A stretch of 64,000 nt of DNA, taken from Eubacteriales bacterium. GTDB taxonomy: Bacteria > Bacillota > Clostridia > Oscillospirales > JAAYXM01. The notes beneath the pieces were generated by a model that did not search any database, was not told where the DNA came from, and saw nothing but the letters and a program-made list of their open reading frames with translations. Of this stretch, positions 4,646-59,780 are shown piece after piece; positions within the stretch are counted from its first letter, which is position 1, and every line of letters begins with the position of its first letter. The stretch is from the NCBI GenBank assembly GCA_045539475.1, contig JAZQFJ010000045.1, positions 2,024 through 66,023 on the forward strand. The letters run 5' to 3'. Made by a program: the position numbers and the translations under genes.

Positions 4646-6274
4646 TTAGTTATTCTTTTCGTATTCGCCGTCGGTGATTAGGGTATACGCACTTTCGTTT
4701 CTCAAAATTGCATAACCGACATATGTTCCTTTTTCATCCGCAATAACGCTGAACTGTGTGCCCGGCTTTGTCATAGCAATTCTCGTTGTGTTACTTTCAC
4801 TGTCTGTAAACATAATGCCCTTTTCAACTGCATCTTCAAGACCGATAAACTCTGCCATAACACCGGTTACGCCTGCAGCTACATCAAATGCGTCGATGAT
4901 TATCTTCATCTTGCTGCCGGTGTAATAGTGGTCTTCGTATTCTGCAGTTACTGTGCACTCTTCCCACGCCTTGAAGCTGTATGTTGAATCACAGCTTACA
5001 ATTTCTGTCTCACCGTTTATACCGGTCTTTGTCCAGCACTTGAATACACCTGTGGCGTTTGCTGTGCAGATAACTGTGTCACCGTAAGCATACAAACCTG
5101 TGCCGGTACCACCGGTTACGGTTATACCGATATTCTTTTCCGGTTCATCAAGGTCATAATGTGCAACATAGATGTTTGTTTCGCCGTAGCGGTCCCAGCC
5201 AGTTGATGTGCCGTAGCCTGCCATCGAAACTCTTGTTTCCTGATTTGCCCCGGGAATAAGCTGACCGTTTGCATTGTAGTATTCCGTTCCGGAAACTTCA
5301 TCAGCATATACCGGGATAAGATAATTTGCATACTTTGAATCCGGAGCATAGTTTTTAAGCTCGTTGGTCTCGCCGATAAGAATTCTCTTCTGTGTGGTAA
5401 GCCCCTTTGCCCAATAGAGGAATTTTGCACCGTTTTTATTTATTTCCGGAGCTGTGATGTTATGCGTTCCGTCAGCGTTCTTAACTGATTTAATCTCGCT
5501 GCCGTCTTTTGAAATAGTTATTACGGCCGGTTCGTTGTAGTTTTCCTCCGGAACACTGCCGTCAAGCTCAAATGCCGCGACGAGCTCTTCATCTTCCTCT
5601 ACCGGAACAAGCTTTATTCCGGAAAGATACATTTCCTGCTGATACGCGGCATTCAGAGAGTCATTTACTCCGGTCGCATCAGTGGCTACTGAACCATCCA
5701 CCACATTTATTACTTTAGAATTAAGTGTAACAGAATTTAATGTTGCTGCAAAAAGAATGCAGTATTCTCCCACTTCAAGGTCTGCTACGATTTTTTCTCC
5801 ATCAGCACTTCCATTCTTCGTGACCGGAGCATATTCCCCTGCAGGTGCCGCAGAAAAGTTGAAGTAACCGAGAAGCTTGTCGTCCGTTCCGATAATCGCA
5901 TTGGTGTTTGTTGCACTGTCCATTGCTGAATTATATTTTGCAATCGCAATTGCGGGTGCAATTGATGTTGCCTCAGGATTGTCGGTCTTAAAGTAGACAT
6001 TATATATGCCCGGTGTTGCCACGCTTGCCTTCAGCGCAACGAACTGGCGATGTGATGAGTTTCCGCCGGCACTATATCTCCGCACCTGTATGCCTGTCCA
6101 TGAGAGAACGGAATCGGTAATCTCAACAGATTCCGAAGCACTGCTGCCTGTGGTTTTTGCTATAATTTGGGATATCACAAGCTCCTGCTCGGTTGCCTCT
6201 CCCGTTGCGAAGACTGACGGGATGAGAGAGAGCATAATCGCCGCCGCAAGGATAATTGATAATATTTTTTTCAT
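4646..6274 (-). CDS. Secreted 542-aa protein. Its N-terminal module is shared with the 1..4580 product, and its C-terminal repeats are of the Listeria/Bacteroides (YxFxGW-like) kind.
   Basis: ORF track, with an AGGAGG RBS and signal peptide MKKILSIILAAAIMLSLIPSVFA. Nucleotide repeat 5617-6205 matches 3910-4500. C-terminal motifs are AKFLYWAKG and GVFKCWTKTG. Confidence 0.8.
   Translation of the reverse strand: MKKILSIILAAAIMLSLIPSVFATGEATEQELVISQIIAKTTGSSASESVEITDSVLSWTGIQVRRYSAGGNSSHRQFVALKASVATPGIYNVYFKTDNPEATSIAPAIAIAKYNSAMDSATNTNAIIGTDDKLLGYFNFSAAPAGEYAPVTKNGSADGEKIVADLEVGEYCILFAATLNSVTLNSKVINVVDGSVATDATGVNDSLNAAYQQEMYLSGIKLVPVEEDEELVAAFELDGSVPEENYNEPAVITISKDGSEIKSVKNADGTHNITAPEINKNGAKFLYWAKGLTTQKRILIGETNELKNYAPDSKYANYLIPVYADEVSGTEYYNANGQLIPGANQETRVSMAGYGTSTGWDRYGETNIYVAHYDLDEPEKNIGITVTGGTGTGLYAYGDTVICTANATGVFKCWTKTGINGETEIVSCDSTYSFKAWEECTVTAEYEDHYYTGSKMKIIIDAFDVAAGVTGVMAEFIGLEDAVEKGIMFTDSESNTTRIAMTKPGTQFSVIADEKGTYVGYAILRNESAYTLITDGEYEKNN
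5617..6205 (-). repeat. Copy 2 of the ~600-nt direct repeat (approximate ends)
   Basis: See 3910-4500. The antisense shadow ORFs 4300..4677 and 6006..6302 also have near-identical translations (MPGVATL.FSATNWRC...). Confidence 0.85.
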
Positions 6275-13659: not shown

Positions 13660-14439
13660 TTGAAAGAGAATAAATCGCCGAAGGATGCGGCAATGTACAG
13701 AAAAAAAGATTATGTGACTAACAAGCTCCTTCTTGTTTTCACGCTTGCATTTGCGCTTTTGCTTTTACTTATGAACGTAGGGCGCATGATGAAGAGCACA
13801 GCAACGTTTATGTCCGCGTATACCGTGGTTAAGGTTGTTGCAGTTGCCGCCGTGGTACTCGTTGCCGCGGGAATCGTTATGATGATTGTTGAGCATTCTA
13901 AAAAGAAAGATATGAGCTACCGACTTCTCTCGGGCAAGAACGTGACAGTTGCGGCTTTGTTCGTTGCAATCTGTGCTATCGCCCTTTCCCTCGTCTTTTC
14001 GCAGAGTATGCTTATGCTTCTTTACATCTTCGTTCCTGCAGTTGTTGTTTTGTATATCATCTACTATTCATATCAGCGCGAATTTTTCCTTATCGCCCTT
14101 TCCTGTATCGTCGGCGGTATCGGAATCTGGCTTTTGGGTTCTGACCTTGTGAACACTAAAGATGTTCTCGCAATTGCAGGCGCTGCTGCACTCGTTATTC
14201 TCACTGCAGGCTTTGCACTGTGGGCACAGCTCGGAAAAGGGAAGATAAAGCTTTTCGGACGTGAGCTTGCGGTTTTCAAGGCAGATGCACGTTACGGAAT
14301 CATCTACCTCACCTGTCTTTTGGTTCTTATGCTTCTTGCCGCAGCTTTCCTCGCTCCGGACCTTGCAATGTACTTTGTTTTCGCACTCATTGCATACATC
14401 GTTCTTACCGGTGTGTATTATACCGTAAAGCTTATTTAA
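13660..14439 (+). CDS. Polytopic membrane protein of unknown function
   Basis: The ORF-track translation shows about 7 hydrophobic segments. The start is uncertain: TTG 13660 or ATG 13693. Confidence 0.65.
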   Translation: MKENKSPKDAAMYRKKDYVTNKLLLVFTLAFALLLLLMNVGRMMKSTATFMSAYTVVKVVAVAAVVLVAAGIVMMIVEHSKKKDMSYRLLSGKNVTVAALFVAICAIALSLVFSQSMLMLLYIFVPAVVVLYIIYYSYQREFFLIALSCIVGGIGIWLLGSDLVNTKDVLAIAGAAALVILTAGFALWAQLGKGKIKLFGRELAVFKADARYGIIYLTCLLVLMLLAAAFLAPDLAMYFVFALIAYIVLTGVYYTVKLI

Positions 14440-14468
14440 ATTTTATTTGAACTTTTGCAAAAAAAGGC

Positions 14469-14497
14469 TTGACGTAAACACATTTTTCATTTATAAT
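14469..14497 (+). promoter_or_regulatory. Promoter for tRNA-Ser
   Basis: TTGACG, 17 nt, TATAAT. A perfect 12-bp hairpin (gtcggtattcgg/ccgaataccgac) lies between the promoter and the tRNA. Confidence 0.55.
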
Positions 14498-14560
14498 ATA
14501 TCAAGTAAGTCGGTATTCGGCTTACACAAAACCGAATACCGACGACTTTATTTTCGACTT

Positions 14561-14652
14561 GGAGAAGTACTCAAGCTGGTCGAAGAGGCGCCCCTGCTAA
14601 GGGCGTAGGTCGCGAAAGCGGTGCGGGAGTTCGAATCTCCCCTTCTCCGCCA
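14561..14652 (+). tRNA. tRNA-Ser (anticodon GCU), CCA encoded
   Basis: Manual fold: acceptor GGAGAAG/CTTCTCC, anticodon stem CGCCC/GGGCG with loop CTGCTAA, long variable arm, T-arm GGGAG-TTCGAATC-CTCCC, then GCCA. Confidence 0.9.
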
Positions 14653-14657
14653 GAAAA

Positions 14658-14684
14658 AAGACATCCTTTAGGGTGTCTTTTTTC
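14658..14684 (+). terminator. Rho-independent terminator after tRNA-Ser
   Basis: aagacatcc-ttta-gggtgtctt followed by a T-run. Confidence 0.8.
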
Positions 14685-14823
14685 AGTTATATTTGCCTTA
14701 TGGCAAGTTATGAATTGACTTTGTCAACGCTTGTCTTATTAAAGGTAAATATATCATAACAGCAAACGAAGTTTGCTTCATAACTATAAACTCTAAACTT
14801 TCAACTTCCCTCTAAACCATTCA

Positions 14824-15356
14824 TCTCCGCCAGAAAAACCTCATCATTCTCTCATGAAAAAACGGCAAAAACCGGCGAAAATTTGGCAGAAACTTGGCAA
14901 CACAAAAAATAAATTCTGTGTTATAATTTATGGCAATGATGCTTTCGGAGTGAACATCTGTGAATTTGTGCGCGATTCATGAAGGATGCTCCGTGTGCGC
15001 AAAGCGTCAGGTTTGTATTGAAAAAACAATACAAATAAATTATAATAGAAAGGAAAACAACAATGTTAACACAAAATTTATTTAACAAAAAGCCAAAAAC
15101 TTTCATGGACTATGAGCCTGGTAAGTTGCCAAACAACAAAGATTGGGACACGCAGACGAAATCCGAAACCAAAAATTATGCCCCTTTTGCATCAAATGTG
15201 AAAATAGTCGGAAACAATGTAACAAAAAAGGACTACGATGATTTCTTTGAAGGGTTCAATGACCCGTACGGAGAAAAAAGAGAGCAAGAACAACAACGAA
15301 AAGAAAGGCTTGCTAACATTCGTGCAAACGCGGATAAGCAAAACCGGTATTCTCAG
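14824..15356 (+). repeat. Cassette repeat copy 1: tRNA-3'-end-like core, 239-nt leader and first 98 codons
   Basis: Near-identical to 17053..17586. Homology starts exactly at tctccgccagaaaaacc and ends after codon 98. Confidence 0.9.
14919..14927 (+). promoter_or_regulatory. Extended -10 promoter element (TGtTATAAT) in the cassette 1 leader
   Basis: ctgTGtTATAATtt. There is no good -35. Four phased GGC(A/G)(A/G)AA repeats sit upstream. Confidence 0.45.
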
Positions 15357-16208
15357 AGTGCATCCACTTTACAAACAGATGCGTTTGTTAAAGGATTTAA
15401 TAAAGAAAAAACAACCGGCATATTAAATCCACATCCTCCCTATGATACCGACCGTGCTTTTGGATTACTCGGTACAGAAGAGAGCGAATTAAAATCGACG
15501 CTGCAAAAACTCAACGCTTCTCCTGCGATAACAAATGCTATCAATCGCAATCCCAATGCCAAAAGCGAATACAAACCCATCGGCACACATGATCCGAATG
15601 AAGAACCTGTTATAACACAATTGTCAAATGATGAGAAAACTTCGGATTTTACTGAGGTATTAGGTAATACATTAAAAAGATCATTTTTTGAAGCTTTTGC
15701 TCCGGATTATTTAAAACCATCCAGACATACTGCACTATGGTTTGTCGGTGCTGAAACCTACTTGAAGCATAAAGGTTATGATACTTCTGCATGGTTACTA
15801 AAACACTCTTTGCAACCAAATCCCGAAGATGTTTATAGGGATGATAATTCAAGAATTGCACAGCTTATCAAAAATGATCCGGCGTTTGTGAAAGAACTCG
15901 ACATAGCAATTGCCAATAGCGATGGGAAAACATTGGATAAAACAATTTCTGTTTCATTTAAGCAGGGAGATTTATATTATTCCATACATAAAAACGATAT
16001 AAAACTAACCGGATATAAAGATGAAAATGGAAAATGGAAAATTTCCGCAAGGTTGTCTGATGAATATAATTTCTCGGAACTTACTTCATGGATGGATGGT
16101 GAAGATGCTACATTGGGTACATTGGCTAATGATGTAGCGTATTTTTCTGAAAAGATTGGTGCGATAACTCCATACAATATTTATGTCGATTTTAATATTG
16201 AAAGGTAG
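15063..16208 (+). CDS. Cassette 1 large protein (381 aa): conserved 98-aa N-terminus plus a unique C-terminal domain. Polymorphic-toxin-like architecture; function unknown.
   Basis: ORF track, RBS AAAGGA. No signal peptide or TM segment. The first 98 residues differ at 2 positions from 17293..18498; the remainder is unrelated. Confidence 0.6.
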   Translation: MLTQNLFNKKPKTFMDYEPGKLPNNKDWDTQTKSETKNYAPFASNVKIVGNNVTKKDYDDFFEGFNDPYGEKREQEQQRKERLANIRANADKQNRYSQSASTLQTDAFVKGFNKEKTTGILNPHPPYDTDRAFGLLGTEESELKSTLQKLNASPAITNAINRNPNAKSEYKPIGTHDPNEEPVITQLSNDEKTSDFTEVLGNTLKRSFFEAFAPDYLKPSRHTALWFVGAETYLKHKGYDTSAWLLKHSLQPNPEDVYRDDNSRIAQLIKNDPAFVKELDIAIANSDGKTLDKTISVSFKQGDLYYSIHKNDIKLTGYKDENGKWKISARLSDEYNFSELTSWMDGEDATLGTLANDVAYFSEKIGAITPYNIYVDFNIER

Positions 16209-16214
16209 AGTTTT

Positions 16215-16820
16215 ATGAAAAAAATCTTTTTGCTCGTTTTGACACTTTTACTTTTAACATCCTGTAGTAGCAGTGTGGAATTAAATCCCGAATGGTATCC
16301 TCACGGATGGGCAGGTAAAGATACTATTTTTGTCTCCCGACCAAATGGAAAATTCAGTATCGGGCAATATTCTAAAAGTCAAGCTCTCGCTGTAAACACC
16401 GATGACGAAAGGCATGACATCCTTCTTTCTTCAGTAACTGACCATAAACGAATCGAAGATAAAGTGTATGTATATTCCGATGAAGGATATTGCGTTATTG
16501 ATGAAACTGCCAACACCGCAGAAGTTTTGGTTATCGTGGAAGATCAGTATGCGTTATCGGGTACGGATGATCCTGCCGTCACATATCTAAAATCATTTGA
16601 CGATTTTTCAGACAAGGCAAAAAAGATTTTTACAGAGATGGGGCAATACTGGTCTGACAAAGAATATCGTAGATACGGTTCAAATGACAAAATATATCCT
16701 GACGGGACCATTGAATATTCGGATGGTGGTTTATATCAGATGGTAGTAATTTATGTTATACTTCAACTACTTGTTGCTACTGTCCTTGTAATTATTAGAT
16801 TGCGTGCGCGAAAAAAATAA
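16215..16820 (+). CDS. Lipoprotein with C-terminal TM anchor (201 aa). Candidate immunity or partner protein of cassette 1.
   Basis: Lipobox MKKIFLLVLTLLLLTSCSS and C-terminal hydrophobic VVIYVILQLLVATVLVIIRL. Starts 7 nt after the upstream stop. Confidence 0.6.
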   Translation: MKKIFLLVLTLLLLTSCSSSVELNPEWYPHGWAGKDTIFVSRPNGKFSIGQYSKSQALAVNTDDERHDILLSSVTDHKRIEDKVYVYSDEGYCVIDETANTAEVLVIVEDQYALSGTDDPAVTYLKSFDDFSDKAKKIFTEMGQYWSDKEYRRYGSNDKIYPDGTIEYSDGGLYQMVVIYVILQLLVATVLVIIRLRARKK

Positions 16821-16943
16821 TTTCTTTTGCGTTTCGCTTGTAATTTTATCCACCTACGGTTAATTTAGCAGTGAGTGGATTTTTTCTCTAAAGCTACTAT
16901 TTATACAACTTCAGAATATATTGTGCATATGGGTGGCAGAGCT

Positions 16944-16955
16944 CCTTCTCCGCCA
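16944..16955 (+). repeat. Copy of the tRNA-Ser 3' end (ccttctccgcca)
   Basis: A 12/12 match to 14641-14652, closing cassette 1. It sits within a ~36-nt stretch homologous to 18903-18938. Confidence 0.75.
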
Positions 16956-16987
16956 AAAACTGACAAGTTTCAACTTGTCAGTTTTTT
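16955..16987 (+). terminator. Rho-independent terminator directly after the tRNA-end copy
   Basis: ctgacaagt-ttca-acttgtcag followed by a T-run. Confidence 0.75.
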
Positions 16988-17052
16988 ACTTTTCACTATT
17001 CTCTTTTATCTATTCTCTCTTCACAAAAAGTGTATTTACATAAAACTTAAGT

Positions 17053-17586
17053 TCTCCGCCAGAAAAACCTCATCATTCTCTCATGAAAAAACGGCAAAAA
17101 GTTGGCGGAATTTTGGCAGAAACTTGGCAACACAAAAAATAAATTCTGTGTTATAATTTATGGCAATGATGCTTTTGGAGTGAACGTCTGTGAATTTGTG
17201 CGCGATTCATGAAGGATGCTCCGTGTGCGCAAAGTATCAGGTTTGTATTGAAAAAACAATACAAATAAATTATAATAGAAAGGTAAACAACAATGTTAAC
17301 ACAAAATTTATTTAACAAAAAGCCAAAAACTTTTATGGACTATGAGCCTGGTAAGTTGCCAAGCAACAAAGATTGGGACACGCAGACGAAATCCGAAACC
17401 AAAAATTATGCCCCTTTTGCATCAAATGTGAAAATAGTCGGAGACAATGTAACAAAAAAGGACTACGATGATTTCTTTGAAGGGTTCAATGACCCGTACG
17501 GAGAAAAAAGAGAGCAAGAACAGCAACGAAAAGAAAGGCTTGCTAACATTCGTGCAAACGCTGATAAGCAAAACCGGTATTCTCAA
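17053..17586 (+). repeat. Cassette repeat copy 2
   Basis: See 14824..15356. ttctccgccagaaaaa at 17052-17067 matches the tRNA end plus flank for 16 nt. Confidence 0.9.
17149..17157 (+). promoter_or_regulatory. Extended -10 promoter element in the cassette 2 leader
   Basis: Same TGtTATAAT as in cassette 1. Confidence 0.45.
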
Positions 17587-18498
17587 AATAACTCATTTCT
17601 CGAAGGTTTCAATTCTGCTGGAATTACGAAAAAAAGCAGAAAAGGAAACGGCATGTTTCAAAAAACAAAACCGGAGATTACAAAACTTCCCTTTAACCCA
17701 TCACAAGAAGTGAAAATTGAGAAAATGCCAGGCGGTCCAAATAAACCATTATCCTTTATTCAATATGTAAATGGAGAAACAAATGACCCGTGGGGGTCTT
17801 CTCTCGGTGGTGATTTGAAGTCCAACGAAGACAAGGCTCTTTTTCTTGAAGGTTTTGCGGGAGAGTCTAAACAACCACAAAACAAAACCCAAGATAAAGA
17901 TGCCATAGAGTTTGGAGTAGATTCCGAAACCTATAAAATTCTTCAGGATCTCAGTAAACGATGGTATGCAACTTCTGATTCTGCAGAAAAAGACAGACTG
18001 CACGAGGTAGCAGAGAAAGTAAGGATGTATCATCGTCAAGGAACTCCAATTTTTGATAAGCACGATGCGATAATGAATCTTTTGCACGAAAATAAAAAAA
18101 GGGCTCAAGATTATCAGAAAACGATGACAGAAGGTTTTCCAGGCTTTCTTTATCGAATGTCTGACGGAAACTATATGTTAGATTCCTCAACATATCTTAT
18201 CGGAATGGTCGATGAAGGTGAATGGGACTACAAGTACAATAAAGATTGGCAAGTGCCACACGATCACTTCGATGGCAAATATATGGATACCCCCGGAAGT
18301 AATTATAGAAATTGGTTGCCATGGATGTATTTTGATGGTCGATTGATTTCAGCTGATAAACTTGGCAATATGAATATGGCGTATGTTGGCAAAAATATGG
18401 GATTACCCGAGTGGGTGTACAAAAACATTACTACCACAGATAAAGATGATGCGGAGTGGGTTCAGTACGGCATTGACCTTGCAAATTCAGGGAGGTAA
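17293..18498 (+). CDS. Cassette 2 large protein (401 aa): the same 98-aa N-terminus with a different C-terminal domain (possibly toxin-44-like)
   Basis: ORF track. The C-terminal stretch GEWDYKYN...ADKLGNMNMAYVGKNMGLPEW recalls, from memory, the WDYK / GNxxYG pattern of polymorphic toxin type 44 domains. This is unverified. Confidence 0.6.
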   Translation: MLTQNLFNKKPKTFMDYEPGKLPSNKDWDTQTKSETKNYAPFASNVKIVGDNVTKKDYDDFFEGFNDPYGEKREQEQQRKERLANIRANADKQNRYSQNNSFLEGFNSAGITKKSRKGNGMFQKTKPEITKLPFNPSQEVKIEKMPGGPNKPLSFIQYVNGETNDPWGSSLGGDLKSNEDKALFLEGFAGESKQPQNKTQDKDAIEFGVDSETYKILQDLSKRWYATSDSAEKDRLHEVAEKVRMYHRQGTPIFDKHDAIMNLLHENKKRAQDYQKTMTEGFPGFLYRMSDGNYMLDSSTYLIGMVDEGEWDYKYNKDWQVPHDHFDGKYMDTPGSNYRNWLPWMYFDGRLISADKLGNMNMAYVGKNMGLPEWVYKNITTTDKDDAEWVQYGIDLANSGR

Positions 18499-18502
18499 AC
18501 TC

Positions 18503-18823
18503 ATGAAGAAACATTTTCTCGTTAATACATTGTTTTCTCTTGCTTTCATTATTTTCGACCCATTTTTAATCTGGTGCAGTGATTTAGCTGATGTGTATAG
18601 CTTGGGCGCAGAAATGGTTTTAGGAATGTTAATACCTTTTGTTTTCTTCCTTTTTATTCTCTTTGCCATTTTCTCTGTATCACTTTCTTTGTACAAAGCC
18701 ATTGCTACGAAAGACATAAAGCAAACTATACCAACTTTGGTGCTCATTGCATTTGTAACACTGTATATTACTTTGTCAACACAAGACAGTCTATGGGTTC
18801 GTGTCATTGAATATTGTAAATAA
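18503..18823 (+). CDS. Small 3-TM membrane protein (106 aa). Candidate immunity or partner protein of cassette 2.
   Basis: GGAGG RBS then ATG 18503 (MKKHFLVNTLFSLAFIIF...), 4 nt after the upstream stop. The ORF track shows a longer in-frame version starting at 18383. Confidence 0.6.
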   Translation: MKKHFLVNTLFSLAFIIFDPFLIWCSDLADVYSLGAEMVLGMLIPFVFFLFILFAIFSVSLSLYKAIATKDIKQTIPTLVLIAFVTLYITLSTQDSLWVRVIEYCK

Positions 18824-18926
18824 TGCGACGCAAAGTAAAAACAACATACCTAACCACCTCACAAAATCAATAATGAGATGAAATCCCAAAATAGAACAAG
18901 GCATTGTACACACTCGTGGCAACGCT

Positions 18927-18938
18927 CCTTCTCCGCCA
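18927..18938 (+). repeat. Copy of the tRNA-Ser 3' end (ccttctccgcca)
   Basis: A 12/12 match, closing cassette 2. Confidence 0.75.
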
Positions 18939-18940
18939 AC

Positions 18941-18982
18941 AAAAAAGTCACTTTTGTCTATCAAGACAAAGGTGACTTTTTT
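18941..18982 (+). terminator. Rho-independent terminator after the distal tRNA-end copy
   Basis: aaaagtcacttttgtct-atca-agacaaaggtgactttt followed by a T-run. Confidence 0.75.
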
Positions 18983-19086
18983 AAATGTTGTTTGCCTGCG
19001 GCAAATGATGTTGGCGTTGCCAATGATGTTCGATTCGCGAATGATGTGTGCCTTGCGGCAGGATTTTGCATATTTTACTGTTATTC

Positions 19087-20451
19087 TTATATCTTAAATA
19101 TTCCGAATGCATCAAGAACAGACGATACAAGGATGAGAACGATGCATATAGGTGCAACGTACTTTATAATCACCTCAAAAAGTCTCCTCTTCTTGAACTT
19201 AGAATTAAGCTCAACTTCTTCAATAACTGTTTTCGGCTTAATTACATAACCTACAAAGATGCAGGTAAGGAAAGCAACTATCGGCATAAGCACGCTGTTG
19301 CTTATGAAATCGAAGAAGTCAAGGAACTGAAGACCGATGATCGTGACATTTCCGAGCGGTCCGTAGCCGAGCGAGGAAAGAAGCCCGAGCGCAACGGAGA
19401 AGACGAACACGACAAGGCATGAAAGCTTGCGGGAAAGCTTCGTCTTATCACAAACTATGGAAACAACTGTTTCAAACAATGAAATGGACGATGTGAGCGC
19501 CGCAAAAAGAACGAGAAGGAAGAACGCAATGCCGACAACCGTTCCGGCAGGCATCGTCTCAAAGACCTTCGGAAGTGTTACGAACATAAGGCTCGGACCC
19601 TTACCGAGAGCCTCGGGGGTTCCGCCGGAGAATACGAACACAGCCGGGATAATCATAAGACCTGCAAGAACCGCGATGCCCGTATCGAAAATCTCTATCT
19701 GGGAAACGGAGGATTCGAGGTTAACATCCTTCTTCATATATGAGCCGTAGGTTATCATAATTCCCATCGCAAGAGACATTGAGTAGAAAAGCTGCCCCAT
19801 AGCGGCAAGAACCGTTGTTGCGGAGAATTTTGAAAGGTCCGGAAGGAGATAGTACTTAACGCCTTCTAGTGCGCCCGGCATACATACCGAATAAACCGCA
19901 ATAACAATTGAGAGTACAACAAGAATCGGCATCATAACCTTTGATACCTTCTCTATGCCCTTTTCAACGCCGCAGAGAACAACAATCGCAGTTATTCCGA
20001 TAAAGGCAAGGAACCAAAAAATCGGTTCTCCGGTCTGTGAGATAAAGCCGGTAAAATAAGAATCACCTGCAGCTGCACCGGCGCCGCCGCTTGCAAACGC
20101 ATAAAGATACTTCGTTACCCAGCCGCCTATTACGGAATAATACGGCAGAATAATCGCCGGAATAATCGCCGCGATGTATCCGATGAATGAATACTTTTTG
20201 TTAAGCGCGCGGTATGCACCAATTGCTGAAAGACCCGTTTTTCTTCCGATTGCAATTTCTGCCGTCATCAGCGCAAAGCCGAAGGTAATCGCAAGAAGGA
20301 TGTATACAAGGAGAAAAATGCCGCCGCCGTATTTCGCAGCGAGATACGGGAATCTCCATATATTACCAAGCCCGACTGCCGAGCCCGCAGCAGCAAGAAC
20401 AAAGCCTATCTTGCCGGTAAAGCTGCTTCTGTTTTCGTTTGACATACTCAT
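19087..20451 (-). CDS. Sodium-dependent transporter, neurotransmitter:sodium symporter (NSS/SNF) family
   Basis: Signature GLGNIWRFPYLAAKYGGG. Polytopic, 454 aa. Confidence 0.9.
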   Translation of the reverse strand: MSMSNENRSSFTGKIGFVLAAAGSAVGLGNIWRFPYLAAKYGGGIFLLVYILLAITFGFALMTAEIAIGRKTGLSAIGAYRALNKKYSFIGYIAAIIPAIILPYYSVIGGWVTKYLYAFASGGAGAAAGDSYFTGFISQTGEPIFWFLAFIGITAIVVLCGVEKGIEKVSKVMMPILVVLSIVIAVYSVCMPGALEGVKYYLLPDLSKFSATTVLAAMGQLFYSMSLAMGIMITYGSYMKKDVNLESSVSQIEIFDTGIAVLAGLMIIPAVFVFSGGTPEALGKGPSLMFVTLPKVFETMPAGTVVGIAFFLLVLFAALTSSISLFETVVSIVCDKTKLSRKLSCLVVFVFSVALGLLSSLGYGPLGNVTIIGLQFLDFFDFISNSVLMPIVAFLTCIFVGYVIKPKTVIEEVELNSKFKKRRLFEVIIKYVAPICIVLILVSSVLDAFGIFKI

Positions 20452-47944: not shown

Positions 47945-50900
47945 CTACGCGATATAGTCGAGAATTCTCTTGATGAGAACTGCAACCTCTGCACGGGTGG
48001 TGTTAGCAAGCGGGTCAATAAGACCGTTCTTACCGTTGACAAGCTCTGCCTTGACAAGCGCAGAAACCGCTTCCTTTGCATAATCTGCAACTTCATTGAA
48101 ATCAGCCGCCTGAGGCTCATCTTCCGCTGCGGTGATTTTCTCCATCGAATACAGTGCACGATAAACTATAACCATCATATCCTGACGGGTTATTGTGTTT
48201 CTCGGTGCGTATTTATTGTCACCGATGCCGTTTACAATACCTGCATTGCGTGCTATTGCAAGCTCTGATGCGAAGTAGTCATTTTCATTTACGTCTGCAA
48301 AGTTTTCGGTATTGTCCGATGCGAGCTTGAATGCACGGACAAGCAGGAGCGCGAAGTCTGCGCGCGTTATATTCGCGGATGGACTAAACGTACTTGCAGA
48401 CGTGCCCTTTATTATTCCATCCTCTGCAAGATAGTTTATCGCGCTCTCTGCCCATGCGTGATTAGAAAGGTCTGTGAAACGGATAGTATCCGTTTCACCC
48501 GACGCGTCGGGTGCGGTGTTCGCATCATCTGCAGTTTCGCCGTTTTCTGTGCCATCGGGGGCTTCCTGCTTATCGGTAGGTGCGGCATCTCCGCCACCAC
48601 CGCCGCCTCCGCCACCGCCGGACGGTGTGGTGGTATCATCGGTGCTTCCGGAATTGTCGGTTGACTGGTTATCATCTGCCGATGGCTTACTTGTCGTCGA
48701 ACCGTAGACCGTTACCGTAAAGTGAACAGTTGTTTCCGTAATCCCGTCAGTCACGGTTATTGCAAAGTGATTGTCGCCAACCTGCGAGCTATCCGGTTTC
48801 CATGTGACGGTCATATCATTTGCGCTTACGGTTGCTCCTCGCGGAAGCGATGTTCCAACAGCCCAAATTGCTCTTCCCGCAGGGCTGTATGCGCTTATCG
48901 GAATTGATATAGAGCTTCCTGCCGAGGTTGTATAGTTCTTGGGTTGAACAACATTCGGTGCACTGTCATAAATGCTTGAAACCGGAATTCTGAGCGTTTG
49001 CCCCTCATCAATATTATAAACATATCCGCGAGCTGTGTTATTTACGTCAACATAGCTTCTGATTAGGGAAACATCACCTATATTAAGCTTAATATTTCCG
49101 TCTTCGACAGATGCAGACTCGATTCTGTATGCGCCGTTCCGGACTCCGTCGTTCTCGACATATACAAACTTACCTGCGAGAGCCTCATTAGCAGCCTTCG
49201 TATCGTTAAGAGCAATCTCATTATCGGGCTTGTAAACGATATAGTTCTCCTTTGAAAGATCTTCTGTGAAGCTCTGAACCTTTCCTGTGTATGCCGCGAT
49301 TGCTTCTTCGGTTTCAGTATCACCAACGAGTTTTAAAACCTCACCGTCGTTGAGATATGAGTGGATGATTTTTCCTTCCTTATCAAAAGAAATTACACCT
49401 GCAAAGCCACGGAAGTTTATTTTATCCTCTATAACATAATCAACCGAATTATTGGTTGAATACATTATATAATCAACTCTTCCGTTCTTAAGAGTTACCT
49501 TGACTGCACTGTAAGCGTCAAGAACACCCGGCTTTGAATCTTCCTCACGGACCATCGGAACCTTTTCAATTTTTTCAATATACTTATTCGTTACATCATA
49601 CGGTTCAAAAACGGTCGTGAATACCGTGTCAAGATTTGTTCCGCGATTTCTGACAAGCATATATTCAAGGTTTCCTGCATGAGCGTTGCTCTTATTCTGC
49701 GGAGGCAGCGCCTTTGCAAAGGATACTTCAGAAACAGGACTGTCATTCAGCATCGTGACTCTCAGGCGGACATCACGTTTCTTATCCATAACCTTTTTCC
49801 AGTCCTTGACATTGAACTCAACAGTGAAATCCTTTTCAACAGAGTTATAGGTACGTACATCACGAAGCCATGTATATCCTTTCGGGTAAACTTCAGAACC
49901 GGCACCACCCGGGTCCGGACCGTATTTTACATCGGGACCTGCATATGTACCGTAAAGGTTTCCTTTATCATCCGTATACATCGGTGTCGCTTCCATATCT
50001 CCAAGACCGGAAATAGCCGTATGCTCATCGGACTGGCTGTGGAAGCTGTAGAGATGGTCGTCGCCGCCCTTGATATGGAAGAAGTCAACACCATAAGAAA
50101 TTTCATCATCGACATCAACCATAACTACCGATCTTCTGTATTCCTCAGTATTGCTGTACACATCGGCGCTTATATCCATAAGCTTGACGCGTCCGGAATC
50201 ATCGAAGTGTATCGGAGTCTGAGTAGCCTTAATTGTCTCCTGCTCATTCTCATCAACGACAACCGTGTTGTGAGAAATCGTTGTGCTTACCCACTGAACG
50301 CGGTTCGGCTGCTGACCAGTTTGCTCCGGATATCCGATATCGGGAGCGATATTGAGACCATATGCATCTGCAAAGAGGTTCAATGTATCGCGGTGACCGT
50401 GCATATCATTTTTTCCGAAATAGATTGCAAAGTCGCGATGCGTGTTGTTATAGCTTGATGTGCTTGCGGAGTCATGTTCTCCGCCGGCGCGAAGCGCGGC
50501 AAAACCGTAGCCTGCAAGCATATCACTGGGAAGAGCAAGCTTTCCTTCCGTTTCAATTACCTCTTCAATATCCTTTGTAAGCTGCTCGGGATCGTCATCA
50601 AGGATACTGCCGCGAAGCTCGATTCCACGCGTCTCATGCAAGAAGTAAAGCGCCTGAGCAAGAATCGGCTGCTTCGTGTTCTTATATGCCAGAAGAATAT
50701 CATCCTCTACAACTGCAAGACCCGTTCCTCCGATTGCACCGAAGTCGCCTGTGTGCGAGGTGTAGTAACCGCCGAGAAGCAGACGGATCTGAGCCGCAAA
50801 CATCTTTGTAAACTTCGGGTTTTCATAAAGGTCAGCCTGCGGATAAAGCTCAAATCCACGCAAAAGCTCTGCAACGCCCTGGAAGTGCGTAATCAATTCG

Positions 50901-53900
50901 CGGTTATATCCCGGAGAATTTTCCTTTCCGTTTCCGTCGCGGTCAATATCACCGATAAGTGACCCCATAAACATGCCACCGGCAGCAGGAATAGTTCTCG
51001 GAATCTTACCTGTGTTTATACCGGAAGTTCCAGCAACCGGACCCGGAGCGAATATCCAATCAATCATCTCGATTGATTCAGGTGCTCTGTTGAGAGAAAC
51101 CGCTGCAGCTGCAACAGATTTCTGGTGCATACCGAAGTTACCCCAGTTTTTGCCGTATTTTGTTCGTTCGAATATTTTAAGAATAAGGTTTTCTTCGACA
51201 TTCTTTCTTACTGCGCCGGGGCTGTCTTTAAGGTTAACCGGAATAAGCTCTCCACTTTCATCCTTAACCCAGTTGCCAAATTCATCCTTTTCATATTGCG
51301 GCGCTCTCTCGGAGAGATATTCAATTACCGCAGGGTCATTGTAAATCGGCTTAAACGCATCGTATGCCATTGCAAAATCATAGGTCATAAATGTGGACCA
51401 GACAGGGTCAACGATTGTACCATAGTAATCGTCGCCGCGCCAGGTATGCCACTGGAACCAGTCATAGCCGGGGAAGAAGTCGGCAACTCTGTCGAGAAGA
51501 ATTGCGCCCGCTCTTCCGTATTTCGCTTCACCCGTGTACACAAAAGCCGTGGCAAGAGAATTTATTGCCTTTCTGATTATCTCATCTCCTGCATACCACA
51601 AGCCGTTGTGGATGAAGTATCCAATATAGGTATACTGTACCGGACCTTTATATGCTCCGTCTGTATACCACGCATAACCTTCGTTATCATAGTAGCGTGG
51701 GTCATATCCCGGAACCTTTGTTACGTCTCCGCCCTCGCCGACAATTTCTTTTGCCTTTTCAATCGAAATATAGGGCATTTTATATCCGAAGCCGTCGTCA
51801 ACACCCCATCCCGCGATACCGAGCTTCGTGTCAAGCTCAGGATAAAGATCGTTTGTGAGATATCCACCCTTGACATTATATCCGTAGTGGTCCTTCCACT
51901 CCTGGCTTTCGCGAGCCTCGTTCCAGGCATCAAGCTCTGCTGTCCACTCTGCCGTTCCGGGTGTCTTTGTTGTATAGCTCGGGAATTTGCCGATGTGCGA
52001 ACACTCATTTCCCGCCTTTACATCCTCACAGACAAACTTTTCATGATGCTTCTGAAGTGCTCTGTCAATTGAGAATGTTCCATCGTCTGCAAGACCAAGC
52101 TTATAGAAGGAGCCAAAGTCGTTTGACGGGAACAGACGCTTACAATCCGGACACTGAACCTTCCACGGTCTGTTTATAGGATCTGTATCAAATACCGCAT
52201 TGTATTTCGTTCCGATATCCGCTCCGCAGTAACGGCAGAAGTTCTGCAACGGGTCGTACTTATGGCCGATATGGTAAAAACGCGGCAGACCTTCGGACAC
52301 GACAAGCTCATACAGCAAATCAAGCTTTTCAACGTATTTCTCTGCTTCTGACTTAACAGCCTTTACCTCATCGCGAGCCCATGAATATCGCTGTGCGTTT
52401 TTCTTTGCGTTTTCGCGCTCCTCTAATGTGTATATCGTCGGGTCAACGGTTGCATCCCAAGTAACCTGGAGCGCAAGCGGCTTAATTACAATTCCTTCTG
52501 CCGCACCGTTTTTATAATCCGCGCTGACAGTTGCGGATATTACCGCAGTACCAACGCCGATACCGTAGACACTTCCGTCTTCTGAAAGCTCAACATATTC
52601 GGAGCCTTCAACGAGTTCCCATGTAATGAACTCGCCAGGAACTGTGAGTATATTTCCGCTGTTCATACGCGCGCTTACACCAAGCTTTGACCCTCCGTAA
52701 ACGTAAATAGACTCAGGAGCGGTAATCTTGATTCCGTTTTCAGCGATACCTGAATTGTCGGAAACCGAAACAGTAAATTCGGCTTTCTTCGTTATGCCGT
52801 CATATGTTACTGTTGCGGTTATTTTTGCTTTACCTTCGCTGATACCGGTGATTGCACCGTTTTCATCAACCGTTGCAATATCGGGATTTTCAGATTTGTA
52901 TACGACAGCTGTAATATCGCCGTCTGCATATCCGATATCCTCACCCTTGACGGTTTTGAGCTTAAGCGTGGTGTTTACCGTTTCACCAAGACCTAAAACA
53001 TCGCTTCCGCTCTCCGTCACAATTTCTGCACTGCCTAAAGCGTTTTCGTCTGCAAACGTAAACGAATTCATATAAGCGGCATCACCGCCTGCCTTTGCTT
53101 CTCCGCTTTCGCTTACACGATAGACAACAAGATGCTCGCCTTCTGTAATTTCCTTTATGCCAAAGGGCTTTACGCAGCCGTCATTGTCTTCAACCTCAGA
53201 ATAGAAATCCGCCGTTCCGACATAATATTCACTTGTCGGTACTGCATATTTGAGGATGTTGTTTTCAAACTCCTCTGTTGCAGGCATAACGTAAAGGTCG
53301 AGCGCCGCATTTCTCCAACGGCTTCTGAACATATCGCCTTCTGCAAGATATGTGCTGGTTTTAGGGAACTTAACCTTAAATGCAACGTATGAATTATAGA
53401 GATTTGTTCCCTGCCAGACTATCTGTGCAGATGTTTTCGGACCGTTAAGCAGTATATCGGGATATCTCGGATCAATGTTTTCCACACTGTGGAATATCCA
53501 CGGGCGGAAATCCGTATATGATTTAATATCATTTACCCTGCTGTAGTTATCGGCGGGGTATGCACCCTGATTAAAGTTAATTGCAACAACGGATGAGGGT
53601 GGCACGTCTTCGCTGAAAACAACAATTTTTTCGGGTACACTCTCAATGATATTTCCGCGAATGTTGATTTTCGCCTTTACTTCAAAGGTTCCGGCCTTCG
53701 CCGCGCGGACACCATCTTCTGTCAGAGTTGCAACACCGTCTTCAGACTGATTCTGAATCTCAAGGCTTTCGATTGTTCCGCCGGGCAGAACCTTTCTGTT
53801 TACAAGCTCATAACCGGTTGTGAAGAGAAGCTCTTCGCCAAGCATAATCCTGTTGTTTGTGTAAAGATACGTTTTTGCTATTTTGTAATCATTATCAACG

Positions 53901-56395: not shown

Positions 56396-56466
56396 TTTTT
56401 CCTCCTTGTGGAAATGTGTAAGGGGCAAGCAAGCCTCCCTCCGTGTGTGAAGGGAGGCTTGTTTTT

Positions 56467-59400
56467 TTAGTCGCTGTATACTACTTTGTATTCACTGCCA
56501 TCCTGATAAATCATATATCCGCGTGCTGCTGTCTGCGTGCTGTTTGCAGGCTTTGCGGTAAACTGACCGTGGCCGGTAGTTCCGCCCTTTTCCTGTGAAA
56601 CTGCCTTATATTCGCAGCTGTCAACCGTTCCGCCTTCGCTGCCACCAAAGAGTATACCGACTTCGACAATTGTCTTTCCGCCTGCATCGTATTCTATCAT
56701 GTATGCATTTGTGCCGGTTGAGTCTGTCTTGACCGCCTTGTCAAGCACAACAAGCGGCTGTGCCGTGCCTTCAACATAAGTAATTTTTTCTACGTTGTCC
56801 CATACATAATATTCGTATGTTGTGCCGAAGCCTACGCGTACATCGTCACGATACCAGACAACAGAATCCTTATCATTGTAGGTTCTTGTAATCTTTGTGT
56901 CGTATTTGAGATCTTCTACACCGTCAACGGTAAATCTGTCGCCTGTGTCTTCGAACACCGCAACTGCACGGGTAACCGGTGCTGTAAGAACTGTTTCGGA
57001 AAGTTTTGTATCCTTTGCCGTGAACCAGTCAAGGAACTTAAATCCCGTAAGGCTCGGTGCGGCAGGAGCCTCTACTTTATCGTCAACAACATTGACAGTT
57101 GTAATATATTCGCGGTTTCCGTTGAAGAACTCAACTATCTTTGCATCCTCTTCTACATTCGGTGTGTAAACCGCTGTAAGGTAAGTGTTTGTGATAAGCT
57201 TATAGGTAAAGCTTGGCTCTGTTGAAACAAGCTCACCTTGTTCTTCCGTTCCGCGTACCCAACGGCGGAAGGTATAACCTTCTATCTCCGGAGCTTCGAT
57301 TTCAACCTCGTCGCCGCGTCTGTACTGACTACCCTCAACCGTAATTTCCTTGTTGACATTGTCTGTAAGCGCAAGGGAAACATACTGATTTTCTACGTCT
57401 TCGCTGAGCGCCGACACCCAATCAAGCTCAAGGCTCTCTAACATTGCAAAAGCTTTGCCCTCGGAATCGTTACCGTTTCCTAACTCGGATATGAGGACGA
57501 TAACGTAATATTCATCATCAGAAAGCTTAATGGGGTTTCCAGATTTCTTCTCGTCCGAGGTGCTCATATCTGCAGAAACAACGAGCTTTACACCGGCGGT
57601 GTCAGCAGCAATATCCGCCAAGTTTGTACCATTCGCCATTGACCATCTTGCATTGGCATACGCAGCAGGTACGATGTATGTGTTTACGATTGAATTGTTG
57701 GTTCTTGCATCCCAAGTCACAGCCGGTGTGTATATGCCGGGGTTTTCAACGGGAATTTTCAGAACATATCCGCCGTTTCCGATATATGTGCCATTAACTC
57801 TGAAATTCAATCCGTAATCAGTCACACTGCCTGTCTCGATGTTCGTTTTGCACATATATCTCCACGGAGCGGAAACTGCTGAATCAATATTTGTATATCT
57901 CATAAGCTCTAATAATGTTCCGTCGGTGGCTTGCTTTGTGAATACATACTTTACATCTCTTGAAACGGTTATATCAATAGTGCTTGTAAATTCAACACCG
58001 CATGAGGATGCCGTTACCTGAATGGTTGCTGTGCCTTCTTCAACGCCGGTGACAACACCGCTGTTATCTACTGTTGCAACGGAAGGGGCAAGGCTCTTAT
58101 ATGTAACACTGCTTGTAGGAGCAGTATTTCCTGCCTCATTCTTAAGAGCCACAGAAACAGTTGCCGTCTCGCGGACTTTTACGGTATCCTTAGAAGCTGT
58201 GAGAGCAACCGCGGACTGAGGTGTGAGAGTAAGACCTTTTGTTTTGAAATAAGCATTTGACACGTGAGTTGATACCCCATTTCCTTCAAAAAGGCTTATA
58301 AGAACATAATATTCTCCCGAACCGAGATACACATCGCCGTATTCACCTGTTATATTCGCAGTGCTTCCACTACTTACCCAACCGTTCTGGGAAGCGACAA
58401 GCTTTACCCCCTCGTCACCGAACACCTCTGCAAGATTTAAGTTTGTATCGCTCATTGTCCATTTGCTGTCCGCATAGGAAACAGGAACAAAGTAAATATT
58501 CAATTTTCCGTACTGAGAATACGTCGTGTAAACCATAGACGGCGTATATGTTCCCGAATTTTCAACCTTTGCCTTTAAGATAAACGCGTTATTTCCGAGA
58601 TTGCCCTTTGCAGCACGGAAGGTTGCACCACCATCTGCATCAGGATACATTGTATATCCGTCCATTCTGTGACAGAAACCCGAGTACATCCATGCACCTG
58701 TTGAAATGCTGCTGTCAAGCTGAGTATAATCTTTCATAAATCTCATATCCTGACTGGCAACACCAGCCTTTACTGCCTCTGCAACAAAAGAATATACAAC
58801 AGGTGCAGCTTCAACTGCATCCTCAGATGTGAGAGTAAGCTTTGTAAGCATACCCCAGATGTTGCTGGCATCTTCCGTTCCGGGGGACGGGTCAGTAGTG
58901 CTGTCGCTTGCAACTACAAACATATAATAATCTCCGGCAAAGAGATATACATTTTCTGCAAGCTCATCATCAGCCCCCGTTGCATTGTAACATGCATCGT
59001 AAGAAGCGATATGCTTTACAGAAGCTGCAGGATCATTCATTGACGATACTGCTATTGCTGCCTGAATGCCGCCGATTGTCGCTACATTCCAGCCCTTTGC
59101 TGTCACAACATCCTTGCTTACAAGATATATATCAGTCCACTCATTGTTGTAATAGTTTTTATAGCCCGAAACCGACGCAGTATATGATCCGGATGCCGGA
59201 ACATTTATGGTAAATACCACTGCATTGTTATTAGGAGTTATCCCGGCGCGAGCGGTCTTGAAGTAGAGACCGTTATCCTGGAATGGGGCATTGTCTACGT
59301 TTATCAGGCGCTCAAACTTCCAGTAGTTTGACTTTTCTTCGTTAACGGTATAATTGTTGACATCTGAGTATTTTACAGTATCCGTGCCGTGAGGCGTACC

Positions 59401-59544: not shown

Positions 59545-59780
59545 TTTAAACTCCTCCTTGTAATTTAAAGGCATAATTGCCCTTTGATACAATAATACTA
59601 TTTTTCTTGTGCCCATTCAACCGATACCCTTTACACATCGGGCAAATATAATCTTTGACACTTCCGAAAACATATGCCGTACCCCAAGCGAAAAGCCCGG
59701 GGTATAGCAAATGTTTTACGAAAAGGTCAAGGTGCAAACAAACGCAGAAACTATCGAAAAACAATAAATAAATATTTATT

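Follow-up and report, generated by a model that had tools for sequence, protein, structure and literature searches.

How polymorphic toxins without a signal peptide leave a Gram-positive cell that has no type VII secretion system (T7SS) is an open question, and it is raised by two neighbouring genes, called toxin A and toxin B here, in the 64,000-nucleotide stretch of DNA analysed in this study (the window; positions 2,024 to 66,023 of contig JAZQFJ010000045.1 in the Eubacteriales bacterium assembly GCA_045539475.1). The genome to which the window belongs (G000) has a size of 2.98 Mb, is 97% complete with 4% contamination, and carries the toxins on the contig designated C45. The analysis showed that the window contains two tandem polymorphic toxin-immunity modules inserted at a tRNA-Ser gene (Table 1), and the front end of these polymorphic toxins has not been described before. 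The best explanation, which we regard as evenly poised between right and wrong, is that the toxins bear a loading region that mimics the scaffold protein of a phage, are packed in capsid-like particles and are released by a holin and a lysin. The locus offers a concrete and testable answer to the question of export.

Each toxin gene is followed at once by its own small gene for an envelope protein, as the original prediction had claimed, and the intergenic gaps are 6 nt between toxin A and its predicted immunity protein Ai and 4 nt between toxin B and Bi. Sequence comparison also bore out the near-identity of the two toxins over residues 1–98, in which only N24S and N51D differ. At the DNA level the repeat is longer than had first been noticed: it covers ~535 nt at ~97% identity and takes in 239 nt upstream of each start codon, together with the leader and codons 1–98. 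Toxins A and B hold the only copies of this N-terminus in the genome. A search of 5.8 billion proteins gave 51 relatives of toxin A, and no fewer than 7 further C-terminal types were found behind the same N-terminal region; the C-termini in question include SLT, SLT_2, a Tse3-like muramidase, Peptidase_C39_2/C70, Ntox37, the A-type, the B-type and others. Segment-wise BLAST revealed a mosaic, in which residues 1–98, the linkers (of two types) and the C-termini are combined independently of one another. Moreover, the partner families track the toxin domain and not the front end. Homologs of Ai, all lipoproteins, follow A-type C-termini in locus L003 (78% identity) and in locus L009 (48% identity), where the A-type domain stands behind an unrelated N-terminus. 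In locus L008, a 99%-identical B-type domain is followed by a partner 97% identical to Bi, while a 50%-identical B-type domain in L011 is followed by an exported lipoprotein beta-propeller and another one in L080 by a protein with a signal peptide. A further C-terminal type is paired with membrane-anchored ankyrin proteins encoded downstream. Two features of polymorphic toxin systems (sensu Zhang/Aravind 2012) are present, namely a shared N-terminus with many C-termini and a downstream immunity gene that co-varies with the toxin domain. The swapped C-termini and co-varying partners agree with the toxin/immunity reading made before, and they support the A and B genes as polymorphic toxin-immunity modules, with toxicity and neutralisation as predicted activities. 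One close relative (P0007, 393 aa), which bears the NCBI label 'Bacteroidales bacterium', comes from a 1973-nt contig of a metagenome-assembled genome; it is probably mis-binned, because every genome hit belongs to a single genus of the Clostridia type.

The C-terminal domain of toxin A, which could not be placed before, turned out in structure searches to have the colicin-M fold. Foldseek matched its AlphaFold2 (AF2) model to PaeM (4g75, E 1.5e-4, probability 1.0). In a structure comparison with VIA, the top 12 rows were all members of the colicin-M family or the C-terminal domain of BtpeA (Z 5.7–8.3), and the next unrelated row had a Z of only 3.6. The best alignment was with 4n58_B (Z 8.3, root-mean-square deviation 4.4, 145 residues aligned), and the rows of the family aligned 145–152 residues. 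The matched folds are those of pectocins M2 and M1, PaeM, syringacin M, ColM and the C-terminal domain of the Bacteroides type VI secretion effector BtpeA, on which the literature gave one passing mention and nothing on the activity of this domain. In addition, a D-x-Y-[DN]-F block at residues 333–337 of toxin A, whose D and Y are invariant in 17 relatives, resembles the DxYD of the colicin-M motif. Judging from the models, toxin A is most likely a colicin-M-like enzyme, and it would cleave lipid II on the outer side of the membrane, because the fold is that of colicin M and the partner is an extracytoplasmic lipoprotein. Ai has a C-terminal transmembrane helix and is predicted to be exposed outside the membrane, where it would block toxin A as a putative immunity protein.

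For the C-terminal domain of toxin B, a toxin-44-like identity had been guessed, and a distant relationship of this kind is indeed supported. Toxin B itself scored 13.2 bits against Ntox44 (PF15607), below the Pfam gathering cut-off of 24; sub-threshold matches occurred in 25 of the 39 B-type relatives (best E 7e-4), and in a protein atlas 26 of 30 hits of the domain lay in Ntox44-bearing clusters. Ntox44 has been described as an all-alpha domain with the signatures DxK, GNxxxG and DxxxD (Zhang et al. 2012, PMC3482391). The AF2 model of the toxin B domain is likewise mostly helical, the blocks WDYK, LGNMNMAYVG and DKDD are nearly invariant in B-type domains, and the DxK, GN...G and D..D signatures are present with spacings that differ slightly from the published pattern. 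Given the score of 13.2 bits against a cut-off of 24, toxin B represents a divergent sister group of Ntox44. No solved fold was found for it by Foldseek on the PDB at E ≤0.001, and in a wide VIA comparison the best Z was 5.8, which for a helical model lies within noise. Like Ntox44, which sits at the C-terminus of RHS and other polymorphic toxins, the B-type C-terminus (from about residue 200) is also joined to various other front ends, among them RHS repeats and PG_binding_1. The difference is that the partners of the B-type domain are membrane or exported proteins and that some relatives are fused to PG_binding_1, which argues for an envelope target over the nuclease role sometimes assumed. 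For these reasons we infer from the sequences that toxin B acts on the envelope, as its predicted target.

The N-terminal region gives a different picture. It had been called an N-terminal domain, and while its shared residues 1–98 were confirmed, the idea of a folded domain was not, as AF2 predicts disorder. In both toxins the predicted local distance difference test (pLDDT) exceeds 90 from about residue 200 to the end, which gives a folded toxin domain of ~190 aa, while residues 1–200 are disordered apart from one charged helix; in toxin A the pLDDT of this part is mostly <50 and the helix lies at about residues 72–93. All four motifs reported before are present, with FFEGF at 61 in both toxins, FVKGF at 108 in A, and FLEGF at 102 and 184 in B. 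The pattern used to search for their rarity, [DEN].F[FLV].GF, needs an acidic residue or Asn two positions before the F, so that FLEGF at 184 of B, which has no such residue upstream, falls outside the count. In the six-frame ORFs (open reading frames) of ≥100 aa in this genome, the pattern has 12 matches in 1.6 million residues; four of them are in toxins A and B, one forms the C-terminal end of a phage scaffold-like protein, and beyond these only scattered single hits were found. The form D-x-F-[FL]-x-G-F, present in 1–3 copies in the disordered part, is the sole element common to nearly all members of the family, and it is kept even in members whose first 50 residues differ. The functional core of the N-terminal region appears to be this recurring short motif. 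Upstream of the A-type toxin with a different N-terminus in L009 there is a 108-aa ORF (5586–5912) with a motif-like VFFEGM, which from its sequence might be either an adaptor or a loading module in split form.

The family defined by this N-terminal region is narrow. A protein atlas search with residues 1–200 gave no usable hit, and 20 matching clusters were found among 1.84 billion representatives. Within the taxonomic family of the host, the toxins occur in 15 of the 18 genomes of one genus and in the only genome of a second genus, with at most 7 copies per genome, and they are absent elsewhere in a 401-genome sample of the order. The genome sizes in the genus span from ~1.4 Mb to ~3.2 Mb.

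As had been stated before, the shared N-terminus contains no signal peptide, transmembrane segment, LXG, WXG or RHS domain, and neither LXG nor WXG domains were found in the 51 relatives. Export through a known route (T7SS, Sec or a C39 ABC exporter) by way of an unusual leader would nevertheless agree with the lack of a signal peptide in a Gram-positive-type genome, as for LXG toxins, and with the presence of a T7SS in two members of the genus. However, EssC above the cut-off together with WXG100 was found in only these 2 of the 18 genomes (G017 and G023), and several of the 16 genomes in which a T7SS was not found are 95–99% complete and carry 3–6 toxins; in the 97%-complete genome of the window, there was neither a WXG100 match reaching the cut-off nor an EssC above it. 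The T7SS was rejected as the route on these grounds. Moreover, no double-glycine leader could be read in the sequences. The neighbouring gene for a 259-aa protein with eight transmembrane segments was also rejected as a dedicated exporter, since 28 of the 32 genomes of the family, toxin-free genera included, have it as a core gene in one copy. We consider it very improbable that a known route accounts for these toxins. G017 and G023, the two T7SS-bearing genomes, carry toxins of this family too. A MuF domain was likewise rejected, as none was found in the window's genome and just 2 of the 51 relatives had hits, at E 0.002.

The scaffold-like protein that shares the motif is encoded by the first gene of a five-gene phage remnant outside the window, which comprises, in order, a scaffold, a major capsid protein, a 128-aa protein, a Hol44 holin (PF16079) and a lysin that is a wall hydrolase with NAGPA and SH3_3 domains (the first two at C53 ~49066–50670, the last two at C53:51237–52312). 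The scaffold gene product is acidic and scaffold-like. The 353-aa capsid protein matches PHROG 422 (phrog_422, 'major head protein', E 8.8e-50), has an Ig-like C-terminal domain and shows a weak match to the N4-gp56 family; it had no hits among PDB sequences and no match to the Pfam models of the encapsulin families. No genes for portal, terminase or tail were found beside the cassette. Homologs of the holin and the lysin are present in 18 of 18 genomes of the genus, and the capsid protein in all 14 that were scored in the search of the order, including that of the window. All five genes are intact across species, with ratios of nonsynonymous to synonymous substitution (dN/dS) of 0.11–0.24 at saturated dS, a sign of purifying selection; the cassette is domesticated and not decaying.

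The C-terminus of the scaffold reads D-x-F-L-x-G-F in 12 of 12 cassette orthologs, which is the motif repeated in the toxins. In tailed phages, the scaffold binds the coat protein through its C-terminal end, as is established for P22, for 80alpha/SaPI1, where CpmB copies that end, and for others. A protein of SaPI, CpmB, competes with the phage scaffold, and a scaffold-like motif could in principle do the same; the toxins would then not be exported at all and would serve in intracellular addiction or abortive infection, for example as scaffold mimics that poison the capsid assembly of invading phages. We give this idea very little credence, for the colicin-M fold and the PG_binding_1 fusions point to the envelope, and it is weakened further because the immunity proteins are lipoproteins, exported propellers and membrane proteins, so that the toxic activity must be met outside the cytoplasm.

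The same scaffold ending is found in intact prophages, related to the cassette, of three other genomes (L103 in G020:C20, L105 in G170:C7 and L106 in G010:C39), in which the scaffold, capsid and 128-aa genes have the same order and are followed by large structural genes. Their head order is unusual, with a terminase-like gene, the scaffold, the capsid protein, the 128-aa homolog and a ~700-aa protein, and one of the three also encodes a 2046-aa protein. The existence of such intact relatives in the genus and the order would also fit toxins that are passengers of real phages, loaded by the motif into the heads of intact prophages, as has been proposed for MuF toxins, and acting at infection, perhaps as ejection proteins that degrade the wall or as virion-borne weapons, with the tail-less cassette uninvolved, as would the SLT/muramidase domains of some members, which are typical of virion-internal lysins. 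We think this unlikely, since the sole capsid-protein gene in the window's genome sits in the tail-less cassette and the toxin genes lie at chromosomal sites and not in prophages. Furthermore, each toxin is accompanied by an immunity gene, for which an ejection protein would have no use, and the B-type domain is shared with RHS toxins.

Toxins and cassette are also linked by position and by distribution. Toxin loci L013 and L015 lie directly after the holin and hydrolase genes, and in at least 10 species of the genus the lysin gene is immediately followed, in the same orientation, by a motif-bearing toxin ORF with its partner; one such lysin-adjacent toxin is of the B-type (P0064). In the sample of the order, toxins were found in 11 of the 401 genomes, and all 11 are among the 54 with the capsid protein, compared with none of the 347 without it. 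Complex prediction with the capsid protein and toxin residues 45–100 gave weak support, with an ipSAE of 0.49 (runs 0.43, 0.49 and 0.59), while the best of 3 controls gave 0.00; at least 89% of the contacts were common to all three runs, and the pLDDT of the partner was at least 71. The mark applied is reached by 58 of 80 solved complexes and by 2 of 110 mismatched pairs, and an ipSAE of ≤0.60 was seen for only 7 of those 80 solved complexes and for both mismatches that passed.

The conserved holin and lysin and the toxin genes that directly follow them in 10 species are also compatible with the same modules being released only by the holin and the lysin, through lysis or by a holin and peptidoglycan hydrolase in a way like the 'type 10' route, with no encapsidation and with another purpose for the motif, for instance binding to the 128-aa protein, the holin or the wall. 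Clostridial large toxins and some bacteriocins depend on holin-like proteins, and the complex prediction for capsid and toxin is only weak. However, release alone leaves unexplained why an intact scaffold and capsid protein are kept under purifying selection beside the holin and the lysin, and why the toxins copy the exact scaffold end that is conserved in intact phages. We therefore consider it a rather improbable account of the locus.

Loading into a capsid, the explanation that we prefer, is based on the identity of the motif with the scaffold end, the synteny and the conservation of the cassette. We assume that the N-terminal region would be a cargo-loading region and not the secretion signal of a known system, and that the copies of the motif would mimic the scaffold end and dock the toxins to the capsid protein during the assembly of the shell, in the manner of the scaffold itself and of the cargo-loading domains of encapsulins. 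The toxins would be taken into, or onto, tail-less capsid-like particles, which the holin and the lysin might set free by opening a fraction of the cells, as is the case with colicins and pyocins. Once released, the toxins could attack the envelope of neighbouring cells without the matching immunity protein, at targets that are exposed there, and no import would be needed outside the cell because these targets face outward.

Several points weigh against this explanation. The score of 0.49 for the complex of capsid protein and toxin lies in the weak range. In the window's genome the toxins (C45) and the cassette (C53) are unlinked, and the gene after its lysin encodes a non-toxin. The co-occurrence of toxin and cassette has to be counted as one observation, because it comes from one clade, and three other genera (g2, g5 and g6) have homologs of the capsid protein and no toxin of this family. 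By analogy with the tRNA-Ser site, the adjacency of toxin and lysin in 10 species could reflect an insertion hotspot. A closed shell without a portal offers no obvious way out for a folded 20-kDa toxin. The scaffold of this genome (170 aa, L046 7067–7576) is without ~70 central residues (the IKYNGEERDITLDEAR...DFLD block) of most orthologs; the same gap is found in G018, the nearest relative, and both the N-terminus and the C-terminal motif are retained. As to toxin A, the HR of the catalytic motif DxYD(x5)HR was not seen after its D-x-Y block, the Colicin_M Pfam model (PF14859) had no match in the 17 A-type relatives at E up to 10, and the A-type profile had no hits among PDB sequences, so that membership of the colicin-M group is by fold alone. 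Finally, the formation of particles, the binding of the motif to the capsid protein and the toxicity of the toxins are predictions.

Among known systems, the MuF polymorphic toxins of temperate phages (Jamet et al. 2017, PMC5576092) are similar in that their C-termini vary, that immunity genes lie downstream and that they occur mostly in Firmicutes; their N-terminus ties them to a phage head and not to membrane secretion, as is proposed for the toxins here. The difference is that MuF toxins use a folded MuF head-morphogenesis domain and are encoded in prophages beside the portal gene, whereas the toxins here have no MuF domain, carry a short scaffold-end motif in a disordered region and are encoded outside prophages, and the capsid cassette has lost portal, terminase and tail. 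In family 2 encapsulins, the cargo is loaded through long, disordered N-terminal domains in which short motifs recur (10.1101/2024.04.23.590730). Here too, a gene for an HK97-type putative shell protein adjoins the genes for the proposed cargo (in 10 related species, not in the window's genome), and this cargo has a disordered, putative loading region of 100–200 aa with repeated short motifs ahead of a folded enzyme domain. In contrast to encapsulins, the putative shell protein is a recent homolog of a phage capsid protein (phrog_422) that keeps its scaffold and its C-terminal Ig-like domain, the cargo would consist of swappable antibacterial toxins with immunity genes instead of a metabolic enzyme, and the operon ends in a holin and a lysin, so that release from the cell is implied. 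The literature searched for toxin-loaded capsids or encapsulins yielded nothing of that kind.

The colicin M family (ColM, PaeM, syringacin M, pectocins M1 and M2) shares with toxin A the fold of the C-terminal domain, an immunity protein (predicted in the case of Ai) that is anchored in the membrane and lies outside the cytoplasm, short linear motifs within a disordered N-terminal region, and release by lysis of the producer, which is proposed for both. In contrast, there is no detectable sequence similarity, and the N-terminal motifs of toxin A match a phage scaffold and not translocation boxes; no import of the Ton/Tol type would be needed, because the host has no outer membrane. In systems of holin-dependent release (TcdE-type, 'type 10', and the lysis genes of colicins and pyocins), a holin and a wall hydrolase are encoded beside a toxin gene without a signal, as they are in 10 species related to the one of the window, in whose own genome the pair is unlinked to the toxins. 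By analogy, release of the holin type probably costs or perforates the producer cell. Here, the difference is that genes for scaffold and capsid precede the holin and lysin genes and that the toxins carry the terminal motif of the scaffold. We know of no link to a scaffold or capsid in the holin-dependent systems.

Table 1. Features of the toxin modules and of the related phage remnant; positions are those of the window unless a contig or locus is named
Feature	Position	Strand	Basis and remarks
tRNA-Ser(GCT), insertion hotspot for toxin modules	14561-14652	+	ARAGORN; Rfam tRNA 52.8 bits
Partial tRNA-Ser 3'-end copy TCTCCGCCAGAAAAA, att-like, at left edge of repeat copy 1	14823-14836	+	Direct-repeat families D2/D3, sequence reading
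Repeat copy 1: regulatory region, leader, toxin A codons 1-98	14824-15358	+	~97% identical to copy 2
TTGGCA direct repeats (11-12 nt period), then extended -10 TGTGTTATAAT at 14917-14927	14869-14927	+	Conserved across loci; function predicted
Conserved leader element, ~71 nt, three nested helices	14938-15008	+	13-locus comparison
Proximal sigma-70-type promoter TTGAAA-N17-TATAAT, just before toxin A ribosome-binding site	15018-15046	+	Sequence reading
Toxin A	15063-16208	+	381 aa ORF
Toxin A residues 1-200, disordered, proposed capsid-loading region	15063-15662	+	AF2; FFEGF 15243-15257, FVKGF 15384-15398
Toxin A C-terminal domain, colicin-M fold, candidate lipid II-degrading enzyme	15663-16208	+	AF2 pLDDT >90, Foldseek, VIA
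Ai, predicted immunity protein for A	16215-16820	+	201 aa; lipobox LTSC, C-terminal hydrophobic (transmembrane) helix
Longer tRNA 3'-end remnant CTCCTTCTCCGCCA and terminator-like hairpin, after module A	16944-16957	+	Repeat family D6, sequence reading
Second partial tRNA-Ser 3'-end copy of the TCTCCGCCAGAAAAA kind, before module B	17052-17065	+	Direct-repeat families D2/D3, sequence reading
Repeat copy 2: regulatory region, leader, toxin B codons 1-98	17053-17588	+	~97% identical to copy 1
Twin TTGGCA repeats and extended -10 upstream of B	~17099-17157	+	As for the copy of toxin A
Twin proximal promoter TTGAAA-N17-TATAAT of toxin B	~17248-17276	+	Sequence reading
Toxin B	17293-18498	+	401 aa ORF
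Toxin B residues 1-200, disordered	17293-17892	+	AF2; motifs at 17473-17487, 17596-17610, 17842-17856
Toxin B C-terminal domain, divergent Ntox44-like, all-alpha	17893-18498	+	AF2 pLDDT >90; function predicted only
Bi, predicted immunity protein for B	18503-18823	+	106 aa, polytopic, ~3 hydrophobic helices
Twin of CTCCTTCTCCGCCA remnant and hairpin, after module B	18921-18934	+	Repeat family D6, sequence reading
Five-gene phage remnant, outside the window	G000 contig C53 ~49066-52312 (L046 7067-10316)		Fixed chromosomal site between housekeeping genes

The toxin island starts directly after the tRNA-Ser(GCT) gene and has a GC content of 0.36–0.37, compared with 0.42–0.50 in its flanks. Four partial copies of the 3'-end of this tRNA gene (starting at 14823, 16944, 17052 and 18921) bracket both modules, and no integrase gene was found at the tandem modules (14561–18954). 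In relatives the same site, past prmA and the gene for the 259-aa membrane protein, carries a single module of the A- or B-type; the loci that use it are L003 (A-type) and L008 (B-type), plus L012, L021, L032 and L033. Since the relatives have a single module at the same site, the two modules of the window are stacked at this hotspot. At L032, in a sister species (G018:C39:56195–56496), the toxin gene is broken: it reads as an N-terminal ORF of 116 aa and an ORF of 235 aa, several stop codons interrupt the read-through, and the lipoprotein partner is intact.

The modules move together with a regulatory block, which consists of the TTGGCA repeats, the extended -10, the ~71-nt leader element and the second promoter and accompanies all toxin modules at any chromosomal site. 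The TTGGCA/extended -10 element precedes the toxin gene in at least 12 loci that lie at unrelated places in the chromosome, and every toxin locus that was aligned, also where it follows the capsid/lysis cassette, retains the proximal promoter. In the comparison of 13 loci, 87.8% of the cells in the helices of the leader are paired, against 31–48% when the partners are slid, and seven pairs are changed on both sides, which are favourably biased figures, as the structure was drawn by hand from the same sequences. RNAalifold gave a weak consensus with one compensatory pair, and the hand-drawn structure with three helices fits better. In an Rfam scan of 14400–19100 the tRNA alone was matched, with no family for the leader element.

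Elsewhere in the window, on the minus strand, lie genes for a 2827-aa protein with SLH anchors, Big_2/He_PIG Ig-like domains and a heparinase II/III-like domain (47945–56428) and for an adjoining 1049-aa Big_2 protein (56467–59616). The domains of this pair suggest a cell wall that bears an S-layer with a very large surface polysaccharide lyase.

Independently of the capsid, the two modules extend the colicin-M fold to a polymorphic toxin of the Gram-positive type with lipoprotein immunity, and the partners and fusions of the Ntox44-like domain suggest an envelope and not a cytoplasmic target. As a broader proposal, to which we lend slightly less than balanced confidence, the head of a phage would have become, in one genus of gut Clostridia, a carrier for interchangeable antibacterial toxins: a capsid without tail and portal, retained together with its scaffold, holin and lysin, would be loaded with toxins that are tagged with copies of the capsid-binding peptide of the scaffold. 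If a 7-residue motif does load a capsid shell, the system would be a new class of delivery in interbacterial antagonism in the gut and a live intermediate between phage capsids and encapsulins, and the motif would serve as a peptide tag of natural origin with which proteins could be packaged in a cage derived from a phage. The system would also represent a new way of trafficking polymorphic toxins, and no encapsulin-like compartment before it would have carried as its cargo a weapon destined to leave the cell.

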